This document shows positions 1 to 13,050 of a DNA stretch of 64,000 nt, piece by piece (the stretch's first letter is position 1; every line of letters begins with the position of its first letter). Origin of the DNA: Deltaproteobacteria bacterium (GTDB taxonomy: Bacteria > Myxococcota > Myxococcia > Myxococcales > 40CM-4-68-19). The position numbers and the translations under genes were made by a program. Below the pieces are notes generated by a model, which worked only from the letters and a program-made list of their open reading frames with translations, ran no database searches and had not been told where the DNA came from. The stretch is taken from contig JAYWBT010000174.1 in NCBI GenBank assembly GCA_043781235.1, positions 113-64,112 of the forward strand, in the 5' to 3' direction.

Positions 1-2
1 GC

Positions 3-167
3 ACCCGCCTGGTCAAGGCGCGCGCGCGGCTCAACTTCGCGCTCGACCGCATGGACGAGGCCGAGCGCCGCGAATGGGACGCCCTGCAGGCGAGCGCGCG
101 CGCCGAGACGCACGGCCAGCTGGCCGACGATCCGCTCTTCCAGAAACCTCCTGGTGAAGGGACCTAG
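3..167 (+). CDS. 3' end of a CDS entering from the left edge (unknown product)
   Basis: Open frame 3 with GC3-rich codons (TRLVKARARLNFALDRMDEAERREWDALQ...PPGEGT), TAG at 165-167, overlapping the next start. Confidence 0.6.
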   Translation, partial: TRLVKARARLNFALDRMDEAERREWDALQASARAETHGQLADDPLFQKPPGEGT

Positions 168-834
168 AGCGCTGCGGCTCGCGATCCTGTGCGGCGTGCT
201 GCTCGCGCTCTGGATCGCGGTGCGGCAGCTGCCGGTCCTGCGCTGGGTGGTGCTGGGCGCGGAGCTCGCGCACCGGTCGGGAATCGAGGGCGCGCTGCTC
301 GCGGCGGCCGGCATCTATCTGCTCACGCTGCTCTTCCTGCCCATCGTCCCGCTGACGCTCGCCGCGGGCTGGGTGTACGGCTGGTGGGGCGCGCCGATCG
401 CCCTGCTGCCGGCGGTCGCGAGCGCGGCCACCGCGTTCTCGATCGCGCGCTTCTTCGGACGCACCGCCGCCGCGCAGGCGCTGCTCGACCGGCCGCGAAC
501 GCGCGCGCTCGCCGAGCTCGCCGCGCAAGGGGGCGTGCTGACGGTGATCCTGCTCCGCGTCTCGCCGGTGCTGCCGTACACGCCGAGCAACGCGGTGCTG
601 GGGCTGACAGGCATGCGGCTGCGCGACCTGGTGATCGGCACGGCCGTGGGCATGGCGCCCGGGACCCTGCTCTACGTCTGGGCCGGATCGCTACTGCCGA
701 GCGCCGAGTCGATCGGGCGCGGCGAGGGACTCCGCGGCGGCCTTGTCTGGGTGCTGCTCGCTCTTGGCGCGTTGGCCGCGGCGTTCCTGGGCGCGGCGGC
801 GGCGCGCAAGCTGCGCTCGCTGCCGAAGCGCTGA
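154..834 (+). CDS. TVP38/TMEM64 (DedA/VTT, SNARE-associated) family membrane protein
   Basis: Multiple TM helices; motifs LPIVPLTLAAGWVYGWWG and LLRVSPVLPYTPSNAVLGLT. Confidence 0.85.
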   Translation: MKGPRALRLAILCGVLLALWIAVRQLPVLRWVVLGAELAHRSGIEGALLAAAGIYLLTLLFLPIVPLTLAAGWVYGWWGAPIALLPAVASAATAFSIARFFGRTAAAQALLDRPRTRALAELAAQGGVLTVILLRVSPVLPYTPSNAVLGLTGMRLRDLVIGTAVGMAPGTLLYVWAGSLLPSAESIGRGEGLRGGLVWVLLALGALAAAFLGAAAARKLRSLPKR

Positions 835-1053
835 CTCGCGCAGCTCGCGGGCGAGGAGCAGGCTGTCGACCATGTCGGCCACCAGCAAGAGGACCGCGTC
901 GGGCGTCGGCCCGTCCACGATGGGCGTGTCGCCCTCGCCGAAAACGAAGCGACCGCACACCGACCCGCCGGCGTTGCGGAAAAAAAGAACGGGGATCCGG
1001 CGGCCTCCGGCTTGGAGGTGGCGGACTGCGATGGGCTCGTCGTCGTTGGTCAC
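691..1053 (-). CDS. small hypothetical protein
   Basis: Protein-like beta/alpha pattern in the first ~72 aa (RIPVLFFRNAGGSVCGRFVFGEGDTPIVDG) filling an otherwise empty gap; the C-terminal tail overlaps the convergent gene. Confidence 0.55.
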   Translation of the reverse strand: MTNDDEPIAVRHLQAGGRRIPVLFFRNAGGSVCGRFVFGEGDTPIVDGPTPDAVLLLVADMVDSLLLARELRESALRQRAQLARRRRAQERRGQRAKSEQHPDKAAAESLAAPDRLGARQ

Positions 1054-1296
1054 GGTCTCTAGCGCTTCGCAAGTTCGGGGCCATCCGGACGGCTCGCGTT
1101 CGAGCCCGATCGGCCCGATCTCTGGCCAGGGCGGATTTCGCCGCGGTTGCCTCTGAACCCGGCCGCGTGGGCCGCGTCGCGCTAGCGATCGGGCTCACTT
1201 TCAAGCCACTCCGCTTGCGCAAACGCCGGCTCAATCGCTGGCCCAGGGCTCGAAATCCGGCCACCTTTCCTCGGGAACGCAGAGATCGCATCGCGC

Positions 1297-1311
1297 TGGC
1301 ACCAGCATTGC
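1297..1311 (+). promoter_or_regulatory. sigma54 (RpoN) -24/-12 promoter
   Basis: TGGCACCAGCATTGC matches TGGCAC-N5-TTGC with exact GG-N10-GC spacing, directly upstream of the radical SAM gene. Confidence 0.8.
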
Positions 1312-1326
1312 GTAGAGGATGTGCGA

Positions 1327-2676
1327 ATGGAGCTTTCGCGATTCGTTCTCACGTACAAGGATGCCCGGGCCGGCGAGCACGTCCTCTACAGCGTGATCGA
1401 GGACCGCTACCTGGGCGTGGACGACGCCACGCTGGCCGCGGTCGAGCGGTGGAAGACCACGGGCGACGACCCGCGGGACGGTGCCGAGCAGGAGGCGCAG
1501 GAGGTCCTGCTCGAGGAAGGCTTCCTGGTCAAAGACCGCGCCGCCGACGACGAGCGCCTGCGCGGCTATCTGGACAAGGCGAGCGAGGGCGTGCCGGGCG
1601 CGATGTTCGTGACGCTGATGCCGACGCTCGCCTGCAACCTCGCGTGCACGTACTGCTTCCAGAAGGATCACCCGGGCGTGGCCAAGATGCCGCCGCCGGT
1701 CGAGGACGCCACGCTCGAGTGGATCCTGCGGCGCGTGGACGAACGCGGGCTGCGCCACCTCAGCATCCACTACTTCGGCGGCGAGCCGCTCACGCGCAAG
1801 GACTTCTGCCTGCGCACGGCCGAGGTGCTCTCCGCCTCGATGGCCGCGCGTGGCGGCACCTTCTCCTGGCAGATGACCACCAACGCCATCGGCCTCACCG
1901 TGGAGTTCGCCACCGCGATGAAGAAGTTCGGTGACGGCGTCTTCAAGGTCACGCTCGACGGCGACAAGGAGACGCACGACAAGATGCGCGTCTGGCGTAG
2001 CGGGCGCGGCACCTTCGACGAGATCTTTGCCAACGTGCTGGCGGTGGCGCCACACGCGCGGATACGCGTGGGCGGTAACTTCCTGCCCGACCAGGCGGCG
2101 TCGTTCGAGAGATTGCTTGAACGCCTCAACGCCGCCGGGGTGCCGCTTGACAGCGTGCACTTCAAGCCGATCGTCGACACGCAGCACCGCGAGCAGGGCA
2201 CCTGCACGAGCTGCAGTGACAAGGCCGAGACGCAGACCTTCGTGCAGCTGAACAAGGCAACCGAGCGCCGCAAGCTGCCGACACGCGCGGACGCGGCACC
2301 CGGGTCGCTCGAGTCCCTGCTCGGTCCCTGCGAGCTGCACTGGAAGAACAACTACACCATCGATCCCGAGGGCAAGGTCTACAAGTGCCCCGCGGTCGCG
2401 GGCCTGCCCGGGCTCGAGGTGGCGAAGGTCACCGCGGGCGACGCGGCCGAGAAGGTGGCGCCGCTCCTCGTGCTGCGGCCGTGGGAGCAGTGCGGCGACT
2501 GCGCCTTCATGCCCGTCTGCGTCGGCGGCTGCCTCGGCGGCAAGTTCCTGCAGACCGGCCGCAGCGATCAGGTGAGCTGCAAGAAGGATCTGTTCGAGCA
2601 GAGTTTCCGCGAGAGCACCCTCCAGCGCTTCCTCGCGGAGTTTCCTGAAGACGAAGGGCTGGACCACGCGGCCTGA
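1327..2676 (+). CDS. radical SAM/SPASM domain protein, probable RiPP maturase
   Basis: CNLACTYC (CX3CX2C), YFGGEP, 7-Cys SPASM motif C-X13-G-X4-C...CX2CX5CX3C...C, and an RRE-like N-terminal extension; start is ATG 1327 or GTG 1321. Confidence 0.92.
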   Translation: MELSRFVLTYKDARAGEHVLYSVIEDRYLGVDDATLAAVERWKTTGDDPRDGAEQEAQEVLLEEGFLVKDRAADDERLRGYLDKASEGVPGAMFVTLMPTLACNLACTYCFQKDHPGVAKMPPPVEDATLEWILRRVDERGLRHLSIHYFGGEPLTRKDFCLRTAEVLSASMAARGGTFSWQMTTNAIGLTVEFATAMKKFGDGVFKVTLDGDKETHDKMRVWRSGRGTFDEIFANVLAVAPHARIRVGGNFLPDQAASFERLLERLNAAGVPLDSVHFKPIVDTQHREQGTCTSCSDKAETQTFVQLNKATERRKLPTRADAAPGSLESLLGPCELHWKNNYTIDPEGKVYKCPAVAGLPGLEVAKVTAGDAAEKVAPLLVLRPWEQCGDCAFMPVCVGGCLGGKFLQTGRSDQVSCKKDLFEQSFRESTLQRFLAEFPEDEGLDHAA

Positions 2677-2708
2677 ACAAGGCCGCATAAACCATACGGA
2701 GAGACCCG

Positions 2709-2783
2709 ATGAAGATCAAGCGAAGCATTCGGAAGTCATCGCGCAAGATGCTGCCCTGCAGCTGGTTCTGCGACAATCCTTGA
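2709..2783 (+). CDS. 24-aa putative RiPP precursor peptide MKIKRSIRKSSRKMLPCSWFCDNP
   Basis: Read by hand (absent from the ORF track): SD GGAGAG at 2698-2703, ATG 2709, TGA 2781-2783; basic leader plus Cys/aromatic core; 32 nt after the rSAM stop. Confidence 0.8.
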   Translation: MKIKRSIRKSSRKMLPCSWFCDNP

Positions 2784-2815
2784 CGCCGGGAACCGCGTAG
2801 AGGATTTCAAGGCCC

Positions 2816-4078
2816 GTGCGCTGGCCCCTCGCCTTGGCAGTCCTCGCCGCCTGTGGGGGCCATCGCTCGACCCCTCCGTTCTCGCTACGGATTGCTCTGG
2901 CAGGGCCGCTTCTGCCGATCACTTCCGAGGCACGTGAGAGGCCAACCAGCTCGGTCGCGCAGACCTGGGTGTTCGAGCCGCTCGCGTTGTTCGACGAGCG
3001 GGGGGCATTGGTCCCCAAACTGGCGGCGCAGGTCGAGCGCATCAGCCGCCGCAAGCTCCGTGTCCGGCTACGGCCGGAGCTCTTCAGCGATGGTGCGCCA
3101 CTGACCGAAGCCGACGTCATCCGGAGTCTGGCGCTGCACCATCTGCGCGCCTTGCACGTGGGCGACGCGCTGGAGATCGACGCGGACGACAACGTGACGC
3201 CGGTCGATCTGCTGCTGGTGCGGACGCTGATCGCCCGCCCCACCCCGGGCGGCGAAGTGGGAACGGGACCTTTCTCGGTCACCTCGCAGAGTGCTGAGCA
3301 GATCGTGCTCGCCCGACGCACGCCGCGCGAAGGCTTCATCAACGAGGTCGTGCTGCGCGCTTTCGCCACCGAGCGCGAAGCCTTCGTGCGCACGCTGCGC
3401 GGAGACGCCGACCTCTTGCGCTTGCCCGAGCCCCGCGATCTAGAGTTCTTCGACGGCGTCCCGCGGCTACGGGTGATCCGCGCACCGGGACCGGCGGTGC
3501 ACGCAGTGGCGTTCAACCCGCGCCGGCTTGGGCGCGAGGAGCGCTCCGCGCTGGTGCGCGCCCTGCGGCCAGACTCGATCAGCAGCGTCGCTTATGGCGC
3601 GGCCTGCGTTCCGGTGCTTTCGCGCGCCACCGGAGCTCCTCCGCCGCCCGGTCGCCGGCTCGACATCCTCGTGCCGCGAGAGATCGACGACAAGCTTGCC
3701 TTGGCGGTGCGGCGGGCCCTGGGCGGTCGCGGCGGCGAGGTGCGCGCGCTCGATCTGGGGGCGTACTTCGATGCGCTCAAGGCCGGCGACTTCGACCTGG
3801 CAATCGCGCGTCCGCTGATCTGGCCGCCGTCGGCCGCGGCGCTGAGCTGGAGGTCAGCCGCGCCCACCAACTATGTCGGATATTCGAATCCACGCGTGGA
3901 CGCCGCGCTCGACGAGGCCGACTGGGACGGCGCGCAGCGCGAGCTCGACGCCGATCCTCCCGCCGCCTTCTTCTGCACCCAGGAGCGCCTGGCGGTGGTG
4001 GACGCGCGCGTGCGCGACGCACGCCTCGGGCCGTACGACTTCTTTGAGACGCTGCCCGAGTGGCAGGTATCGCCATGA
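2816..4078 (+). CDS. family 5-like (peptide/nickel) extracellular solute-binding lipoprotein
   Basis: Lipobox LAAC; VFEPL...G.LVP.LA, FSDGAPLTEADV, GTGPF and YSNPRVDAALD motifs typical of OppA/DppA-like proteins. Confidence 0.8.
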   Translation: MRWPLALAVLAACGGHRSTPPFSLRIALAGPLLPITSEARERPTSSVAQTWVFEPLALFDERGALVPKLAAQVERISRRKLRVRLRPELFSDGAPLTEADVIRSLALHHLRALHVGDALEIDADDNVTPVDLLLVRTLIARPTPGGEVGTGPFSVTSQSAEQIVLARRTPREGFINEVVLRAFATEREAFVRTLRGDADLLRLPEPRDLEFFDGVPRLRVIRAPGPAVHAVAFNPRRLGREERSALVRALRPDSISSVAYGAACVPVLSRATGAPPPPGRRLDILVPREIDDKLALAVRRALGGRGGEVRALDLGAYFDALKAGDFDLAIARPLIWPPSAAALSWRSAAPTNYVGYSNPRVDAALDEADWDGAQRELDADPPAAFFCTQERLAVVDARVRDARLGPYDFFETLPEWQVSP

Positions 4079-5646
4079 AGCGCCGCGACCTCTCGGTTCG
4101 GCTCTCACTGCTGGTCGCGTTCTCGGGCCTGCTGCCCATCGCGCTGGTCGGCGTCGCCTCGATCGAGATCCTCCGCCGCCGCAGCGAGGCGGCGTCGCTC
4201 GAGGCGCTGCACGCGGTCGCGGAGCAGGCCGCCGCGCGCATCGGCGACTACGTCGAGCAGCAGCGCGAGACGCTGCGCACGGTCGCCGCCGCGGTCGGCG
4301 ACGAGCCCGATGCCGCGCGCCGCCTCGAGGAGGTGCCGCTCGACGCGCCCGCGCTCGGCCACGTCGCCATCGTCGATGCCGACACGGCCGCAGCAGCCCT
4401 GCCGCCGGCCATCACCCGGGAGCAGCTCGCGCAGGCGCTCGCGGGCCACGAGGTCGCCTCGCCCACCTACCTGTCCGGTCTCTCGCCGGCGATGGACGTG
4501 TGCGTTCCCGCCGTGCGCCGGCCCGGTCGCACGGTGTGCGCGACGCTGGACCTGCTCGAATTGCAGCGGCAGGTGCAGCGCATCCGCGTCGGCGAGTCCG
4601 GGTATGCCCTGGCCTTCGACTCCAGCGGCCGGCTGATCGCGGCGGGCGCCGGCACCCTGCGCGCCGCGGTGCTCGACGGCGAGCGCGTGCCTGAAGCCGA
4701 CGCCGCGCTCGACCTGTCGCAGGGCCGGCCCGCGCGCACCCAGGTCGGCGATCGCGTCGCGGGCTGGGCGTTTCTCAAGTCGCTCGGCTGGAGCATCGCC
4801 GTCGAGCAGTCGTCACAGGAGGCGCTGCGCGCGGCGCACACGGCGCAGTTCGCGCTCGCGCTGGTGGCGATGCTGGCGCTCGCGGCCTCGATCGCGCTCG
4901 GCGCGGCGCAGGCGCGGCGAATGCTGACCACGCTCGAGATCGAGGAGCGCTGGCGCACCGCCGGGCAGATCGCGAGCGGCATCAGCCACGATCTCGGCCA
5001 CCGGCTCGCCATCCTCCAGCAGACCGCGGCGCTTGCCGAAGACGGCGACGCGAGCTACCTCCCGCTGATCCGCGACAACCTGCGCAGCGAGGTCTCGACC
5101 CTGCGCAAGTTCGTCAGCGACTTCGCCGACCTCACGCGGGAGGTAAAGCCCGGCGATCTGCTCCCGCTCGAGCTGGGCGGCTTCGCCGACAGCGTCGGCC
5201 GCACCGCGCAGCCGCACGCCGCGCGGCACGGCATTCACCTCGAGGTGGAGAAGGCGGCGGACGAGATCTGGGTGCTTGCCGACCGCTACCTGCTCGAGCG
5301 CGCGACGCTGAACCTCGCCTACAACGCCATCGAGGCGTCGCCGGGCGGCGCGGTGGTGCGGCTCTCCGTGGAACGCACCGACGGGCCGGAGCCGCAGGCG
5401 CTGCTGCGGGTCGCGGATCGCGGCGGCGGCATTGCTCCCGACCGGCTCGCGCGCCTCTTCGACGCCTTCTCCTCCACCAAGCGGACCGGCGCGCACGTCG
5501 GAATGGGGCTGCCCAACGTCCGCCGGATCGCGCGCGCGCACGGCGGCGAGGTCTCGGTGCTGAGCGTGCCCGGCGTCGGCAGCGACTTCACCCTGGCACT
5601 TCCGATCGCGAAGCCGGGACCGGGGATGACCCCGGCAGCGCCGTGA
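4075..5646 (+). CDS. membrane sensor histidine kinase with Cache-like periplasmic domain
   Basis: TM-Cache(GESGYA)-TM layout; H box SHDLGH, N box NLAYNAIEA, G1 DRGGGI, F box LFDAFSSTK, G2 GMGL; ATGA overlap with the upstream gene. Confidence 0.92.
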   Translation: MKRRDLSVRLSLLVAFSGLLPIALVGVASIEILRRRSEAASLEALHAVAEQAAARIGDYVEQQRETLRTVAAAVGDEPDAARRLEEVPLDAPALGHVAIVDADTAAAALPPAITREQLAQALAGHEVASPTYLSGLSPAMDVCVPAVRRPGRTVCATLDLLELQRQVQRIRVGESGYALAFDSSGRLIAAGAGTLRAAVLDGERVPEADAALDLSQGRPARTQVGDRVAGWAFLKSLGWSIAVEQSSQEALRAAHTAQFALALVAMLALAASIALGAAQARRMLTTLEIEERWRTAGQIASGISHDLGHRLAILQQTAALAEDGDASYLPLIRDNLRSEVSTLRKFVSDFADLTREVKPGDLLPLELGGFADSVGRTAQPHAARHGIHLEVEKAADEIWVLADRYLLERATLNLAYNAIEASPGGAVVRLSVERTDGPEPQALLRVADRGGGIAPDRLARLFDAFSSTKRTGAHVGMGLPNVRRIARAHGGEVSVLSVPGVGSDFTLALPIAKPGPGMTPAAP

Positions 5647-5656
5647 GCGCCGCGCC

Positions 5657-7030
<1,374 letters not shown>

Positions 7031-7039
7031 GCCGCGACT

Positions 7040-7633
7040 CTACCTCAAACTTCGCCTTGCCCAGTGGACGATGCGGATAGCGAAGAGGAGGACCAGGATC
7101 GAGGCGTAGATGCTGGTCTCGGTGTTGAGGGTCTTGAAGCGCCAGGTGAAGTGGACGAGCGCGCTCACGCCCGCGACGTAGACGAGGCGGTGCAGGCGCT
7201 TCCACTTCCGGAAGCCCAGGCGCTTCTGAAAGCCTTGCGTCGAAGTGACTGCGAGCGGCAGCAGCAGCACCCAGGTCGCCATCCCGACGGTGATGAACTT
7301 GCGCTTGACGAGATCCTTGCCGATCTCCGCCCAATCAAAGAACTGGTCGACGCCGACGTACGTCGACAGGTGCAGGCACGCATAGAAGAACGCGTAGTCG
7401 CCGAACAGCTTGCGCAGCAGCAGCGGCCACTTCCACTTGAAGACGATCTGCGCGGGCGTGCACGCGAGCGACAAGAGCAGCATGGAGAAAGCGTAGAAGC
7501 CGAGCCGGTTCTCCAGCTCCGAGATGGGGTTGGCGCCGAGGTCGTTGCGCAGGTACCGGCTTCCAAGCCACGCGAGCGGCAGCAGGCAGGCAACGAACGC
7601 CGCCGGGACGAGCACCCTTCGCGGGAGCGTCAG
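7040..7633 (-). CDS. msrQ: methionine sulfoxide reductase heme-binding subunit
   Basis: Ferric-reductase-like TM domain ([21 protein letters not shown]), downstream of msrP; start is GTG 7615 or CTG 7633. Confidence 0.92.
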
Positions 7634-8565
7634 AAAAACTTCTTCAGATCCATGCCGGCGTACATCGACGCAACCTGATCGCCGTAGCCGTTGAACGGCG
7701 GCGTCTTGCGCTTGAGGAACTCACCGATGCGCCGCTCGTGAGCCTGGCTCCAGCGGGGGTGGTCCACGTCCGGGTTCACGTTGGCGTAAAAGCCGTACTC
7801 GGTGCCGCCGCCATATTGCGACCAGGTGGTGGGCGGCTGCGTTTCCTGGAATTTGATCTTCACGATCGACTTGATGCCCTTGAACCCGTACTTCCACGGC
7901 GTCACCAGGCGGATGGGCGCGCCGTCCTGTTTGGGCATGGCCTCGCCGTAGATACCGACCGCGAGCAGCGTGAGCGGGTTCATTGCTTCATCGATGCGAA
8001 GACCTTCGAGATAGGGAAAGCCGATGCCGGAGAAGCCTTTTACGCCGGGCATGTTCTCCGGCTGCACCGCGCTCTCGAAGGCGAGGTACTTCGCCCGGCT
8101 GGTCGGCTCGAGTTTGTTGATCAGGTCGCCGAGCGGAAAGCCGTCCCAGGGGATGACCATCGACCACGCCTCGACGCACCTCATGCGGTAGACGCGCTCT
8201 TCGATGGGGAACATCTTCAGCAGCTCGTCGAGGTCGTACTTGCGCGGCTTCTTGACTTCGCCCTCGACCGAGATCGACCACGGCCTGGTTGCGAGCTTGT
8301 GCGCATTGGCGGCCGGGTCGTCCTTGTCGGTGCCGAACTCGTAGAAGTTGTTGTAGCTGGTGATGTCTTCGAACGAGGTCTTCTTCTCGCTGGTATCGTA
8401 CTTCGACATCGCCTTCACGCCGACGAGCTTTTCGGAATGCTCAGCGCCCTTGGCCCTGGCGGCGGCCCCGCGCGCGAGCAACCCGACCGTGCCCAAAGCT
8501 CCCAGCGCGCCAAGCTCCAGGAACCGGCGGCGCTGCAGATAGAGATGCTTCGGCGTGACCCTCAT
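7630..8565 (-). CDS. msrP: periplasmic methionine sulfoxide reductase catalytic (Mo) subunit
   Basis: Tat signal RRRFL; [45 protein letters not shown]. Confidence 0.96.
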
Positions 8566-8616
8566 GCGTACCTCCCTCCGTCTACCTACGCGGGAGCCGC
8601 AAAATCGGTTTCGCTT

Positions 8617-9240
8617 TCAGCCTTCGGCGGACTCCGCCTTGCGGACGATCGGCGGCACCGCAACGGCCTTCGGCGGCGCCTCCTGCACCGGCGCAGCCAG
8701 GCCCTTGCGGCGCGCGTTCCAGCGCCCGCGCGCCTGCAGCTGCTCGTCGGGAGAGAGCTCGGCGCGGTGCTGATCGCAGATGAAGCCGGCGCGCGGCCCG
8801 CGCGAGCGGTTGAGGCAGCCGTCCACCCGGCAGCTCATGTCGAGCGTGCGCGGCGCGCGCGGCTGCCTGGTCGGCAGCCGGACGATGCGCTGGGCCGGCA
8901 CCTGGGTCGGCAGCTTGCCCTCGGCGGCGAGCCGGCGGTTGCGCTCGAGAATGCCCTTCTGCTCGGTGGTCGAGAGCTTCCGGGCGTGGTCGCGGCAGAA
9001 CCAGCGATTGCGCGGACCCGCGCCGGGCTTGCCGCAGCCCGGGACCGGACAGAGCCTTCCCGAGCGCCGGCCGTCAGCCTTGCCCGATGAGGCGCGCGCG
9101 GGCGGGGCGCCACCCAGCTGGATGCGGGCCAGCATTGCGCTCACCCGCGCTTCGACCTGCTGCTGAATCGCGGCGCTGAGCTCGCTCGTGAAGCGCTCGA
9201 CGAGCGCACGGAACGGGACTTCATTGTTTCGTTTAGCCAT
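8617..9240 (-). CDS. basic protein with two C-X4-C...C-X2-H putative Zn fingers (resembles myxobacterial vegetative-protein-like family)
   Basis: CPVPGC...FCRDH and CRVDGC...ICDQH repeats; Arg-rich; N-terminal helix. Confidence 0.7.
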   Translation of the reverse strand: MAKRNNEVPFRALVERFTSELSAAIQQQVEARVSAMLARIQLGGAPPARASSGKADGRRSGRLCPVPGCGKPGAGPRNRWFCRDHARKLSTTEQKGILERNRRLAAEGKLPTQVPAQRIVRLPTRQPRAPRTLDMSCRVDGCLNRSRGPRAGFICDQHRAELSPDEQLQARGRWNARRKGLAAPVQEAPPKAVAVPPIVRKAESAEG

Positions 9241-9363
9241 GGTTTCGGAGTTGCCTTTTGTTTTGTTGGATTTGCTCGAGCTGAATCGAAGGGGCGTTCG
9301 CGAGCGCTGTTTGACTTACTTCGTGTCCACGCGAAAGGCGAGCGAAAATGGAGCGGTCGTTAT

Positions 9364-11889
9364 TTATTTTCCGAATAAACCCTTGAGCCGGTTCGCCGCC
9401 TCGTCCTGGATCTTCTGCGCGCGCTGCTGCGCCTGCTGCTCGATCTGCGCCTTCTTCTGATCGAGGTTGTCGACGCCGAGCGCCTTGCCGAGCAGGCTCG
9501 CTCCGGCTTCCTTCATGATCTGCGCGATCGCCGGCTTCAGGTCCAGCTCCTGCACCTGCGGGCTCCACGCCGGCCCGGTCAGCCGCACGCTGAAGGGAAT
9601 GTTCTGCTGCACCTTCACGCGGCCGGCGGTGATCTGCGAGACGGTCGCGGGCGTCAGCTCGATCTTTCCCGGCAGGTCGAGCATGCCGTCGAGGTGGATG
9701 CCGCCGGTGAAGCTCATCACCGCCTCAGGCCGCGTCACCGAGATGGGCTTCGACAGCTCGGCTACACCATTGGCGAAGCGGATGCCCATCGGCAGATCGT
9801 GGCCCAGCGTGGTCGTCCCGCCTTCGGTCACCTTGCCGCCGAGCTGCGCGGGCAGCGCCTTCACCAGCGGTCCCGTCACCGAAGCGATCAGGTCCTTGCC
9901 GAAGAAGTTGCCCTCGAGAACGTGGCCGTCGAGCTGACCCGCGAGCGTCTTGAGCAGCTCGGCCTTGAGCTGCCCCCCGCCCTTGAGGTCGAGGTCGCCG
10001 TTGAACTTGCCGGAGAGGAGCTTGTGCGGCGTGAAGAGCGCGACCGCGTTTTGCAGCTCGATGTCCTTGAGGCGCGTCACCACGTGGAAGGGCTCCTGCG
10101 GATGCGCGAGCTTCAGCTCGGTGCCACTGGCGTCGGCGCTGCCGCCGAACGCGGTGAGCTGCGCCTTGGTCACCTTGACGTCGTCGTCCTTCATCACCAC
10201 CTCGGCGACGATGTTGGTCATCACCTGCTTCGACATCGTCAGCTTGTCGATGCGCACGCTGGCATGGCCGTCGATTCCCTCGAACGTCTTCGGATCGAGC
10301 GGCGGCTTGTCCTGCTTCGGCTTCGACGGCAAGAGCAGCTTGTCGAGATCGAGGTGCGAGCTCGCCAGAGCCAGATCGAACTTCTTCTTGCCGCCGGAGA
10401 GGTCGGCGCTGCCGTGTCCCTCCAGCTCGCCATCGAGGAGGTGCAGCTTCAGATCCGCGATCTCGAGCTTCTCTCCCACGCGCGCTCCGCTGACCGACAG
10501 GTCGAGCCGCTGCCCCGGCCCCTTGTCCACCGACTCGCCCGGCCGCAGATCGACGCCGGCGAGATCGGCCGCCAGGTCGAACCGGATCGGCCCGTTGCTC
10601 GCCGCCGCGCCCCGCAGGTGCGCGACCAGCGTCAGCACGCCGCCGGTCGCCTTGGTCAGCACCGCGGGCAAGCTCAGCCGTGCATAGGTGAGATCGACGC
10701 GCAGCTCGAGCGCCTGCGCTTCCTTTCCGCCGGAGCCCTTGACCGAGAGGCCGATGGGCCCCGCGATCTTGCTCCCCAGCGTTTTCTTCAGCGGCGGGTA
10801 GTACGCCGCGAGCCTGGCCGGATCGAGATCGTGGCTCACGATCTCGAGCCCCTCGATCTGCGGCGCCGCGGTGTTGATGCCGTGCGCGCGGCCGGTCCCG
10901 CTGATGCCCGCGGGCCCCAGGTCGAGCCGCAGCTTGTCGATGGCGAGGTCGCCCTTGTCCGCGTCGCCCTTCACGTCGGCGTCGAGCACCACGTCAAGCG
11001 CCTTGCCGCCCTCGGCGCCGGCGAAGCGCAGGCCGAGCGCGTGCACGGCGCCCTTCACGCTGGTGGGGCCACTGCCACCGGGCACCGCGCCGCCAAGCTG
11101 CATGTCGAAGTCCGCGTCGAGCTTGCCCGCCTCGAGCCCGACCTGCTTGCCGAGGAAGGGCCCGAGGGGCGCGAGATCGATGGGTTGCACCTTCAGCGTC
11201 AGCGAGGTGGGCGTCGGCGTCAGCGTCTTCGGCAGTGGCTCCGCCTTGAGGTGCAGCTCGAAGTTCTGCTGCGCGGCCAGCACCGCCGCCTTGACCGTCA
11301 ACTGGAGCGGACTTCCTGCGCGCAGGTCGTCCACGGTCACGTCGAGGTGATCGATGGCGAGGTCCTTCTCCGGCCCGCCGCTCTTGTCGAGCAGCGCCAC
11401 CCGACCCTCGCGCAACGCGAGGTGATCGACGCGCAGGAAAGAGAGATCGGACGGCTCCTGCTTCGGCTCCGCAGCCCCCGGCGCCGCCTGGGACGCGATC
11501 TTCTTTTGCAGCCGCTCGAGGTTGGTGGTGCCGTCGGGCAGGCGGACGAGGTTGACGGTGAGGCCGTCGATCACCGCCGAGCGCACGTCCACGTCCTTGC
11601 CGCGGGAGAAGGCGGCCTTGAGCAGGGCCAACTTCACCTCGAGGCGCTTGACCTGTGCGAGAGGGACGCCTTCGCCCTCGCCCGCGCCAATCTCCACCTC
11701 CTCCACCTTGACGCCGAGGCCGGTGAGGAGCTTGACCGACACCGACCCGATCGAGATCGGCCGGCCCCACTCCTTCGAGAGCGTATCTGCCTGCTCGCGC
11801 GCCTGCTTGGTCGCGACCTGATCGATGACCAGCAGCAGCGCGAAGAGGAGGACGGCGATGCCCGCGAGGACGATGCCGATTTTCTTCAT
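9364..11889 (-). CDS. AsmA-family (bridge-like lipid transfer) protein
   Basis: N-terminal TM anchor MKKIGIVLAG..., long beta-rich body, LDLDKLL and C-terminal IPFSVRLTGPAWSP; ATG 11889 preferred. Confidence 0.8.
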   Translation of the reverse strand: MKKIGIVLAGIAVLLFALLLVIDQVATKQAREQADTLSKEWGRPISIGSVSVKLLTGLGVKVEEVEIGAGEGEGVPLAQVKRLEVKLALLKAAFSRGKDVDVRSAVIDGLTVNLVRLPDGTTNLERLQKKIASQAAPGAAEPKQEPSDLSFLRVDHLALREGRVALLDKSGGPEKDLAIDHLDVTVDDLRAGSPLQLTVKAAVLAAQQNFELHLKAEPLPKTLTPTPTSLTLKVQPIDLAPLGPFLGKQVGLEAGKLDADFDMQLGGAVPGGSGPTSVKGAVHALGLRFAGAEGGKALDVVLDADVKGDADKGDLAIDKLRLDLGPAGISGTGRAHGINTAAPQIEGLEIVSHDLDPARLAAYYPPLKKTLGSKIAGPIGLSVKGSGGKEAQALELRVDLTYARLSLPAVLTKATGGVLTLVAHLRGAAASNGPIRFDLAADLAGVDLRPGESVDKGPGQRLDLSVSGARVGEKLEIADLKLHLLDGELEGHGSADLSGGKKKFDLALASSHLDLDKLLLPSKPKQDKPPLDPKTFEGIDGHASVRIDKLTMSKQVMTNIVAEVVMKDDDVKVTKAQLTAFGGSADASGTELKLAHPQEPFHVVTRLKDIELQNAVALFTPHKLLSGKFNGDLDLKGGGQLKAELLKTLAGQLDGHVLEGNFFGKDLIASVTGPLVKALPAQLGGKVTEGGTTTLGHDLPMGIRFANGVAELSKPISVTRPEAVMSFTGGIHLDGMLDLPGKIELTPATVSQITAGRVKVQQNIPFSVRLTGPAWSPQVQELDLKPAIAQIMKEAGASLLGKALGVDNLDQKKAQIEQQAQQRAQKIQDEAANRLKGLFGK

Positions 11890-11988
11890 GGCGCGGAACC
11901 TAGGCCACTCGCGCGGCGATGTCAGCCGTCTGCCGCCGAATCTGCCCGGTGGAGGAAAGAGGACGCGGGGCAATCGGCTCGCATCGCC

Positions 11989-13050
11989 TCAGCTCTGCCG
12001 GCGGGCGCCCGCGAGCTGCCCACAGGCGCCGCCGATGGACTGGCCGTGCGGCATCCGCAGCAGCGCGCGCACGCCCTGATCGGCGAGACGCTTCTGGAAG
12101 GCGCGGCAGCGCTCGAGCGGCGGGGCGCGCTGGGCGGCGACCGGCCCCGGGTTCAGCGGAATGAGGTTCACCCGCGCGCCCTCGAGGCCAGCAGCAAACC
12201 GCGCCAGTAAATCCGCGTCCCGGTCGGAGTCGTTCTGGCCTTCGATCAACGTCCACTGGAGCAACACCGGCCGCGGGGACCGGGCGATGGCGGCGCGCAG
12301 CTCCTCGAGCGGCCACTTGCCCGCCACCGGCAGGAGCGCGCGGCGCGTCGCGGGCTCGATCGCGTGCAGGCTGACCGCGACGTTTGCGCGGGTGCGCGCG
12401 TAGAGCTCGTCCAGCTTCGGCACGATGCCGACCGTGCTCACGGTGACGCGCCGCTCGGGCACGGCGAAGCCCGACGGATCGGTGAGGACCTCGATGGCCC
12501 GCAGCACCTGGTCGAGGTTGTCGAGCGGCTCGCCCATCCCCATGAAGACGACGTTGCCGGGCGCGTCGCCGAGGGCCCGCGCGGCGCCCGCGTTTGCGGC
12601 CGCGAGGTGCCGCGCGGCGATCGCGTACTGCACCACGATCTCCGCGGCGGTGAGGTTGCGCCGCAGGCCCAGGCGCCCGGTCTCGCAGAAGCTGCAGCCG
12701 CGCGCGCAGCCGACCTGCGAGGAGACGCAGATGGTGACGCGCGCGCGCCTGCGCGTGTCGCTCTCGGGCTGGTGGATGAGCACGGTCTCGATCAGCGCAC
12801 CGTCCTCGAGGGTGACCGCGAAGCGCACCGTGCCGTCTGGATCGCGCACGGCCTCGGCCTGCGGCAGCGCCTGGTCGAACTCCGTCGCGGCGTCGAGCAG
12901 CGCCTGCGACGGCCGCGCTTCGCTCGCACGGCCAGCGCAGCGTGCTACCAGCGCGCGCCCCAGCGCCTTCGCTGCGCCCTCGCTGGCGCCGCGCTCGCGC
13001 GCCCATCCCTCCAGCGCCGCCCGCGTCTGTCCTGCGAGATGCATGCGCAC
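11989..13050 (-). CDS. rlmN: RlmN/Cfr-family radical SAM RNA methyltransferase
   Basis: TICVSSQVGCARGCSFC, VFMGMGEP, VSTVG, SLHA, NLIPLN, GACGQL; may be a paralog. Confidence 0.85.
   Translation of the reverse strand: MRMHLAGQTRAALEGWARERGASEGAAKALGRALVARCAGRASEARPSQALLDAATEFDQALPQAEAVRDPDGTVRFAVTLEDGALIETVLIHQPESDTRRRARVTICVSSQVGCARGCSFCETGRLGLRRNLTAAEIVVQYAIAARHLAAANAGAARALGDAPGNVVFMGMGEPLDNLDQVLRAIEVLTDPSGFAVPERRVTVSTVGIVPKLDELYARTRANVAVSLHAIEPATRRALLPVAGKWPLEELRAAIARSPRPVLLQWTLIEGQNDSDRDADLLARFAAGLEGARVNLIPLNPGPVAAQRAPPLERCRAFQKRLADQGVRALLRMPHGQSIGGACGQLAGARRQS

Follow-up and report, generated by a model that had tools for sequence, protein, structure and literature searches.

Radical S-adenosylmethionine (SAM) enzymes that carry a SPASM domain and modify short peptides are a known kind. 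PapB, which acts on the ranthipeptide precursor PapA (freyrasin), and the enzyme of structure 5wgg, which we take to be the thioether maturase CteB, combine the radical SAM/SPASM architecture with an N-terminal peptide-binding domain and act on cysteine in a short peptide. In Gram-positive bacteria, the agrBDCA and comQXPA systems encode a precursor, a modifying enzyme, a membrane histidine kinase and a response regulator together, and the peptide is hypervariable. In the LuxP–LuxQ, TorT–TorS and AioX–AioS–AioR systems, a sensor kinase is encoded alongside a periplasmic binding protein that has no transporter, and in the last of these a sigma-54-dependent regulator completes the system. The locus analysed here lies in a window of 64,000 nucleotides (nt) from a member of the Myxococcales (the whole stretch of DNA that was analysed; positions 113 to 64,112 of contig JAYWBT010000174.1, assembly GCA_043781235.1). 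It comprises the gene of a radical SAM/SPASM peptide maturase (1327-2676, plus strand) and, behind it, a 24-codon open reading frame (ORF; 2709-2783, plus strand) that an earlier note had singled out as the gene of a precursor peptide. Sequence comparisons indicate that this ORF is a real and conserved protein-coding gene tied to the enzyme. The neighbouring enzyme probably modifies the encoded peptide, by a mechanism that, judged by analogy, most resembles those of the thioether-forming PapB and 5wgg systems. The gene and its pairing with the enzyme are secure, and the predicted regulatory architecture around them is well supported; the chemistry we infer.

The ORF begins with an ATG at 2709, ends with a stop codon at 2781-2783 and encodes 24 amino acids, MKIKRSIRKSSRKMLPCSWFCDNP. 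A Shine-Dalgarno site, GGAGAG (2698-2703, plus strand), lies 5 nt 5' of the ATG. The peptide is laid out as a leader (MKIKRSIRKSSR), a linker KMLP, an invariant cysteine (Cys17) and a variable tail SWFCDNP. The earlier note had described the 24-codon ORF, its GGAGAG site and a hairpin at 2668-2686, together with a basic leader and a core with C17-x3-C21, Trp19-Phe20, Asp22 and Asn23. All of these are found in the sequence, the leader having lysine or arginine at seven of the first 13 residues. The proposal that such an ORF would be conserved downstream of homologues of the enzyme was borne out by a scan of two sets of loci. Within the same GTDB family, 20 of the 24 other genomes encode an orthologue of the enzyme (59-85% identity), and a 21st contains a fragment. 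A GenBank set adds 31 loci (L024-L054) from metagenome-assembled genomes of uncultured 'Myxococcales' or 'Deltaproteobacteria', one locus being labelled Polyangiaceae, one Archangiaceae and one Terriglobia. The two sets share genomes and, with a second family, yield 35 distinct peptide gene sequences. A homologous short ORF lies 20-200 nt 3' of the enzyme gene in 15 of 19 same-family loci, and in the other four the contig ends at most 91 nt after the enzyme gene. Among the GenBank loci with at least 500 nt downstream, 25 of 26 have the peptide ORF (22 recognized by pattern and three by eye, namely L036, L052 and L046, which has a longer leader). Most of the 15 orthologous peptide genes have a GGAG-type site 5-9 nt ahead of the ATG; in a few it reads GGGG or sits further away.

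Profile searches and codon usage provide further support for the gene. A profile of 14 peptides finds a single match in the window's own genome (E = 2.8e-12; the next best has an E-value of 0.26). Across 401 Myxococcota genomes it finds 14 matches at E ≤ 1e-4, 13 of them within about 200 nt of the radical SAM gene on the same contig and the 14th (G007) on a contig that carries the 3' end of the enzyme gene. No match to the profile occurs in G005, G011 and G015, the three genomes of the family that lack the enzyme. Seven weaker matches (E 5e-5 to 1e-3), in another family, cover the profile only in part. When the 16 codons up to the cysteine are compared among the 35 distinct genes, 31% of the codon pairs that differ are synonymous in the reading frame, versus 12% and 6% in the shifted frames. 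Furthermore, Ser6, which is invariant, and Ser10, which is nearly so, are encoded by AGC in some of the orthologous genes and by TCN codons in others. These switches of serine codon family and the excess of synonymous change point to selection at the protein level. The position beside the enzyme gene across loci, the profile matches and the codon pattern thus argue that the ORF is a protein-coding gene bound to the enzyme. A short ORF that adjoins the enzyme gene across genomes, with its leader kept and its core variable, has the hallmarks of a precursor-maturase pair for a ribosomally made and post-translationally modified peptide (RiPP), in line with the precursor-type peptide and adjacent radical SAM/SPASM enzyme that the earlier note had linked. 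The exact peptide of the window is absent from a collection of 15 billion proteins.

Throughout the family, the leader follows the consensus M-K-I-[KNR]-R-S-x-R-K-S-x-R and is succeeded by four variable residues, often ending in proline. Cys17 is the sole invariant residue of the core, both in the 35 distinct genes and in the variants of L046, L080 and L082. The tail after the cysteine varies in sequence and in length, with 5-10 residues in the ordinary forms of 22-27 amino acids. Two kinds of long precursor, of 55 (L015/L039) and 43 (L050) amino acids, align with the short forms over their first 26 residues and, from their sequences, look like the outcome of stop-codon losses that extended the tail. 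In the second family (46-51% enzyme identity) the peptides read M-[TS]-[ILV]-K-[IT]-S-x-R-x-S-x-R-x3-P-C followed by 5-7 residues, and two loci, L091 and L092, have tandem precursor duplicates 3' of the enzyme gene that differ by four residues and by one residue, respectively. The peptide of a third family, with 35% enzyme identity, is MVKKPLNKRNRKRIPCDALAGF. The single invariant cysteine argues for a reaction centred on that residue. The second cysteine, the tryptophan and the phenylalanine are peculiar to the window's copy, the only one in which C-x3-C, Trp-Phe, Asp and Asn are combined. Most orthologous cores, such as CGMIVISPPVA, CTSIVG and CASAGS, contain no aromatic residue.

The enzyme has 449 amino acids counted from the ATG at 1327, a CNLACTYC motif and the full set of SPASM cysteines. 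It exceeds the cut-offs of both the radical SAM model PF04055 (51.5 bits; cut-off 29.5) and the SPASM model TIGR04085 (39.8 bits; cut-off 27), which places it in both families. Cysteines 103, 107 and 110 of the CxxxCxxC cluster motif and the SPASM cysteines 293, 296, 335, 354, 389, 392, 398, 402 and 418 are invariant in nine orthologues. The best NCBIfam model is TIGR04280 (238.5 bits versus a cut-off of 400; E = 1.3e-70; profile positions 1-423 of 428), and TIGR04463, CefB and PapB come next. The PapB model scores 110.7 bits (cut-off 340; E = 8e-32) and the SCIFF maturase model 68.9 bits, and there are weak matches to the cyclophane maturases YhhB (E = 2.6e-15) and FxsB (7e-14). The closest solved sequence is that of 5wgg (E = 1.1e-16), followed by 8vpo, ChlB and an anaerobic sulfatase maturase. 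A look-up of protein clusters returned generic radical SAM clusters only, and the enzyme family is abundant in soil metagenomes, where its members are named just 'radical SAM protein' or 'uncharacterized protein'. In an AlphaFold model of the enzyme, three strands (residues 7-14, 17-22 and 27-31) and three helices (33-44, 52-63 and 71-85) precede the catalytic barrel, with pLDDT values of 64-89. This N-terminal beta3-alpha3 arrangement, spanning residues 7-85, has the topology of the leader-binding RiPP recognition element (RRE), and we refer to it as RRE-like on the strength of the model.

The earlier note had likened the peptide to the 'geopeptide' type, which is defined by two uncharacterised models, TIGR04229 for the precursor (22 positions; cut-off at least 30 bits) and TIGR04280 for the maturase (cut-off at least 400 bits). 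The kinship holds to the extent that TIGR04280 is the enzyme's best NCBIfam match; membership we rejected, on the enzyme's shortfall and on peptides that match neither this precursor model nor any other. The cut-off of TIGR04280 is reached in none of the 401 sampled Myxococcota genomes, the best score being 261.8 bits. Nineteen family peptides (14 + 5) found no match among all NCBIfam models at E ≤ 10. The comparison with the geopeptide precursor model that the note had called for was likewise negative: a six-frame search of the window's own genome with TIGR04229 gave nothing at the ORF at E ≤ 10, and its best score elsewhere was 13.4 bits. The two systems are alike in having a short basic peptide of 22-27 amino acids, with a cysteine near its C-terminus, beside a radical SAM/SPASM enzyme. 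They differ in that both the enzyme and the peptide fail the models, and it is by model scores that they are set apart. Judged by these scores, the pair is most aptly seen as sister to a model family that is itself uncharacterised: its precursors match no curated model and its enzyme falls below the cut-off of every named family. We found no paper on geopeptides or on TIGR04280 in the literature, where 'geopeptide' returned only papers on gageopeptides. Nor did titles and abstract openings reveal a paper on the precursor family, which the radical SAM compendium (PMC10288494) may list in its supplements.

The enzyme gene is preceded by elements that suggest how the pair is controlled. A sigma-54 (-24/-12) type promoter, TGGCACcagcaTTGC (1297-1311, plus strand), is predicted 15 nt before the ATG of the enzyme gene. 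It is the only match in the window to the consensus TGGCAC-N5-TTGC (-24 GG, -12 GC), where 0.13 would be expected. Of 30 distinct regions upstream of orthologues, 29 have the element at -28 to -31 and the remaining one offers almost no upstream DNA; the bases that flank the element vary. It is also present in nine second-family loci, and the third family has TGGCAC-N5-CTGC further upstream (by eye). The genome contains rpoN and an activator gene, as befits a candidate promoter of this type. From the spacing between promoter and ATG, transcription would start a few bases before the ATG, giving a nearly leaderless mRNA. Other strict sigma-54 matches in the genome (contigs C157, C170 and C155 of G000) also stand 13-15 nt before an ATG, and sigma-54 transcripts with no leader, or hardly any, may be common in this organism.

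Between 1091 and 1262 on the plus strand, upstream of the predicted promoter, are five 16-bp dyad sites of the pattern GGCYNR-N4-CNRGCY, which start at 1091, 1112, 1192, 1228 and 1247. We regard them as putative upstream activator sites of an NtrC-type regulator. The window contains 25 matches to the pattern versus 8.8 expected, these five included. In each of 32 distinct loci, two to five dyads with conserved spacing occur within 250 nt before the promoter. Their density there is 16.4 per kb, versus 0.25 per kb elsewhere in those loci (about 65-fold) and 0.13 per kb genome-wide, an enrichment that is partly circular because the loci used for counting had also supplied the pattern. Of the ten strict sigma-54 matches in the genome, only 1297-1311 has dyads. 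Three further dyad clusters lie on contigs C87, C124 and C140. The cluster on C124 (L102; about 3310-3365) consists of three near-perfect tandem dyads of the GGCTCGAAATCGAGCC type with 21-nt spacing. It precedes an ORF (3467-4435) whose product, a secreted protein, has a CSVCGC motif at its start, and neither a sigma-54 site nor a Pfam family was found at this locus. Its dyads suggest that the NtrC-type regulator, or one related to it, may have a second target here.

Downstream, the peptide gene ends 32 nt before the gene of a family-5 (peptide/nickel/opine type) solute-binding lipoprotein (2816-4078, plus strand) that has the lipobox LAAC and matches PF00496 with 38 bits (cut-off 32.4). This gene overlaps by 19 nt that of a sensor histidine kinase (4060-5646, plus strand), in which two membrane helices surround a periplasmic dCache domain and are followed by a His box and a HATPase domain. 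Convergent on the kinase gene is that of an NtrC-type sigma-54 activator and response regulator (5657-7030, minus strand), whose receiver (PF00072), AAA+ (PF00158, 232.7 bits) and HTH_8 (PF02954) domains, together with GSFTGA and Walker A (GESGTGKE) motifs, identify its class. The binding protein was modelled with a pLDDT of 90.6 and has template modelling (TM) scores of 0.74-0.80 to 5u4o, MppA and AppA, which are peptide, murein-tripeptide and nickel binders. The top Foldseek match is 5u4o (E = 9e-27; TM 0.80), consistent with an SBP_bac_5 fold. Neither a permease nor an ATPase gene of an ABC importer was found within positions 1-12,000 of the window, and no protease, exporter or immunity gene was seen in the conserved unit.

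The order enzyme, peptide, binding protein and kinase, with the convergent activator, is kept in the same-family loci that have enough DNA. In the GenBank set, the convergent regulator directly follows the kinase in 17 of 18 loci that hold the whole kinase gene, and the lone miss (L051) extends only 276 nt past the kinase. L046 lacks a binding-protein gene; it does have a kinase and a regulator of its own, which are differently arranged. Two second-family genomes keep the order, with identities of 37% for the binding protein, 57% for the kinase and 66-67% for the activator. One third-family genome does so with 28% for the kinase and 49% for the activator, and its binding-protein region looks frameshifted. 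There (L101, G298:C2; about 6140-7500, minus strand), three frames contain one lipoprotein signal and one binding-protein-like stretch, reflecting either a decayed binding-protein gene or assembly indels. On sequence comparison, the module composed of dyads, sigma-54 promoter, radical SAM enzyme, peptide, lipoprotein, kinase and regulator is one that recurs in three Myxococcota families, with enzyme identities of 35-51% in the further two. The promoter, the dyads and the conserved genes for binding protein, kinase and regulator are new relative to the first reading of the locus.

Structural modelling supports the idea that the binding protein docks on the periplasmic part of the kinase. A complex of kinase residues 38-268 and lipoprotein residues 18-420 scored 0.63, 0.65 and 0.63, versus 0.00 in all three controls, the score being the model's own confidence and no measurement. 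At least 91% of contacts are shared between runs, and the partner is modelled with a pLDDT of at least 87. The modelled contacts include L194, E210 and R300 of the binding protein and R170, Q173 and R201 of the kinase. The mark applied to such models is reached by 58 of 80 solved complexes and by 2 of 110 mismatched pairs, counts that hold only roughly here because we used our own alignments. Complexes of binding proteins and kinases of other classes have already been solved, so the model may partly remember a likeness. On the binding protein, the modelled interface is more conserved than the rest of the protein (0.58 versus 0.38; reached by 5 of 10,000 random sets), whereas on the kinase side it is not significantly so (0.66 versus 0.59; 1541 of 10,000). 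Among 15 complete loci, the binding protein has a mean pairwise identity of 42%, compared with 68% for the enzyme; the two kinase halves have 60% and 62%. Partial Mantel tests of peptide tails against binding proteins in these 15 loci gave r = 0.11 (p = 0.15) given the distance between radical SAM enzymes and r = 0.22 (p = 0.045) given the distance between kinases.

The account that we favour, and in which as a whole we have moderate confidence, is that the ORF encodes the precursor of a RiPP. We envision that the fixed basic leader (M-K-I-K-R-S-x-R-K-S-x-R) would be held by the RRE-like domain of the enzyme, and that the sulfur of Cys17 would form a bond to a carbon in one of the 5-10 variable residues that follow, closing a single small thioether ring. 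The dCache kinase, working with the co-encoded peptide-type binding lipoprotein, and the NtrC-type regulator would switch on expression through the sigma-54 promoter. We propose the ring because the nearest characterised relatives, PapB and the 5wgg enzyme, form such links. A cysteine thioether, one of the products that the earlier note had put forward, is by this analogy a reasonable outcome for the pair and our best guess. In PMC12373016, PapB is described as linking cysteine to the carbon next to a carboxylate, with many sequences tolerated, and in PMC9413430 as tolerant around the cysteine and of the acceptor. Unlike PapA, the peptides of the window's family have one cysteine, not six, and no conserved Asp/Glu acceptor, and the enzyme's PapB score lies well under the cut-off of that model. 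Several points weigh against the account. The thioether is an analogy, and an enzyme that falls so short of the cut-off of each named maturase family could perform another reaction on cysteine. Candidate acceptors, Asp or Glu, occur in only about a third of the tails (by eye) and none is conserved; across all variants, the tails range from 5 to 38 residues. The enzyme model is of modest quality (pLDDT 67 overall) and was used just for its N-terminal topology. At L047, a contig labelled Terriglobia whose enzyme is 58% identical, there is no peptide ORF downstream, and L087, a second-family locus with 46% enzyme identity, has neither a peptide ORF nor a sigma-54 site. The promoter, the start site and the binding of the regulator are read from sequence, and the partial circularity of the dyad enrichment, the nature of the docking score, the kinase-side interface and the missing protease and exporter count on the same side. 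L047 and L087 may be decayed or rearranged copies, and L047 could alternatively be a binning error.

Other readings of the ORF and its chemistry must be considered alongside this account. The enzyme might instead carry out a different reaction centred on cysteine or on the backbone, such as the formation of a formylglycine-like aldehyde, an epimerisation, or a link made only to the C-terminal residue. This would suit an enzyme that scores under every family cut-off, a sulfatase maturase among its sequence matches and tails that share no acceptor, and PapB is described as joining cysteine even to the C-terminal residue in vitro (PMC12373016). However, the relatives that score higher are cross-linkers of Cys-rich peptides, and the long-tailed 55- and 43-residue variants weigh against an obligatory C-terminal link; we consider a reaction of this type unlikely. 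The earlier note had also raised a cyclophane formed from three residues, one of them aromatic (W-F-C or F-C-D). This idea and that of a product involving both cysteines fit Trp19, Phe20 and Cys21 of the window's copy, and the cyclophane-forming maturase models YhhB and FxsB appear among the weak matches of the enzyme. Yet the residues of these motifs, the second cysteine among them, occur in no other copy, and an aromatic conserved in a repeated three-residue motif, as such cyclophanes have, is missing from a family in which most cores are free of aromatics. The cyclophane maturase models also score far below those of Cys-peptide maturases. We therefore reject both ideas as the chemistry of the family, and regard a product of either kind as highly improbable. 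Equally hard to sustain would be that the peptide is left unmodified, the ORF serving to tune translation of the binding protein from upstream or being there by chance. Its position 32 nt before the binding-protein gene and, in many loci, strong hairpins after the ORF that hold the start codon of the binding protein would be in keeping with an upstream ORF. Conservation at the level of amino acids, with synonymous change and switches of serine codon family, and strict co-occurrence with the radical SAM gene argue against either version. An upstream ORF would also not be expected to persist in L046, where no binding-protein gene follows, or as tandem duplicates in L091 and L092, and we give this explanation very little credence.

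If the ORF is a RiPP precursor, as we favour, what the peptide does is a separate question. As an extension of our account we tentatively raise the possibility that the modified peptide is itself the signal: it would be exported, captured by the lipoprotein and presented to the dCache kinase, and the NtrC-type regulator, phosphorylated by this kinase, would then act at the dyads on the sigma-54 promoter of the peptide's own operon. Genes for maker, precursor and receptor share one predicted transcription unit with the cognate activator adjacent, an arrangement kept in three families. The binding protein has the fold of a peptide binder, lacks a transporter partner in the unit and docks on the kinase in the model (0.63 versus 0.00). 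The hypervariable tail and the binding protein, the most divergent of the proteins compared, are as in a diversifying ligand-receptor pair. The gene logic recalls agrBDCA and comQXPA, with precursor, modifying enzyme, kinase and regulator encoded together and the promoter of the unit apparently under the unit's own regulator. The differences are that this is a Gram-negative-type myxobacterium, with a radical SAM modifier, an added periplasmic lipoprotein and a sigma-54 activator, and that export and sensing of the peptide are hypothetical here. It resembles LuxP–LuxQ, TorT–TorS and AioX–AioS–AioR in pairing a transporter-less binding protein with a sensor kinase, and differs from them in that its binding protein is of family 5 and its kinase has a dCache domain of its own. 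The conserved unit with its sensor and switch genes suggests a self-sensing peptide signal in uncultured soil myxobacteria. A bolder version, which we offer as conjecture, is a self-inducing circuit in which a secreted, radical SAM-cyclised mini-peptide is made from a nearly leaderless operon for both signal and receptor, with the tails as strain- or species-specific 'pherotypes'. Against a loop of this kind stand the absence of an exporter or leader protease from the unit, and the lack of a clear co-variation of the tails with the binding protein beyond shared descent (r = 0.11). In addition, periplasmic proteins often evolve fast anyway, L046 retains kinase and regulator without a binding protein, and the binding protein could take another ligand. 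The peptide could instead be an ordinary secondary metabolite, antimicrobial, metal-binding or similar, with the sensor genes reading an outside cue. Two-component regulators are commonly linked to biosynthetic clusters, a cationic leader and a hydrophobic tail are reminiscent of membrane-active peptides, and no clear co-variation with the binding protein was seen. We find this reading slightly less likely than the loop; against it, the conserved unit has no immunity, exporter or protease gene and keeps receptor genes inside the product operon in three families.

Whichever role applies, the unit is very compact, and its precursor of 22-27 amino acids with one invariant cysteine makes it an easy target for learning the function of geopeptide-like maturases. 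The fixed link to a binding protein, a kinase and a sigma-54 activator, with readable cis-elements, turns the role of the peptide into a testable circuit. Should the peptide prove to be the ligand, autoinduction by a peptide would have an example outside Gram-positive bacteria, in a lineage noted for its social behaviour.

The genes that flank the unit are an msrQ-like (ferric reductase type) and an msrP-like (molybdopterin oxidoreductase) gene (7040-8565, minus strand) and a gene for a DedA/VTT-domain membrane protein (1-834, plus strand). The msr genes lie directly upstream of the regulator gene on its strand, and the regulator may therefore be co-transcribed with them. The DedA/VTT gene is found upstream in nearly all same-family loci, and probably reflects synteny only, though it encodes the sole membrane protein near the unit.

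The intergenic regions hold a few further features. The 7-bp hairpin (gcggcct/gaaca/aggccgc; 2668-2686, plus strand) encloses the stop codon of the enzyme gene, whose TGA (2674-2676) forms the end of the 5' arm and the start of the loop. It is shared only with one group of related loci (L049, L009, L010, L011, L014 and L006), and no T-run follows it. No sigma-70-like promoter or terminator consensus was found between the enzyme gene and the kinase gene. The suggestion that the hairpin stabilises an mRNA for the peptide alone is abandoned, given that the hairpin is not conserved, that it spans the stop codon of the enzyme gene and that the space between the two genes shows no promoter or terminator consensus. 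In most loci (L002, L004, L005, L007, L008, L025, L032, L033, L036 and others), a spacer of 100-250 nt separates the stop codon of the peptide gene from the start of the binding-protein gene. It has a conserved TTGAC(T) element, together with a strong GC-rich hairpin in which the GTG start codon of the binding protein lies. These features could be an internal promoter or serve translational control. In L030, L040 and the window itself the spacer is just 23-32 nt. A further, sixth dyad match, GGCCCGTGCGCTGGCC, lies at 2811-2826 of the window and overlaps the GTG start of the binding-protein gene.

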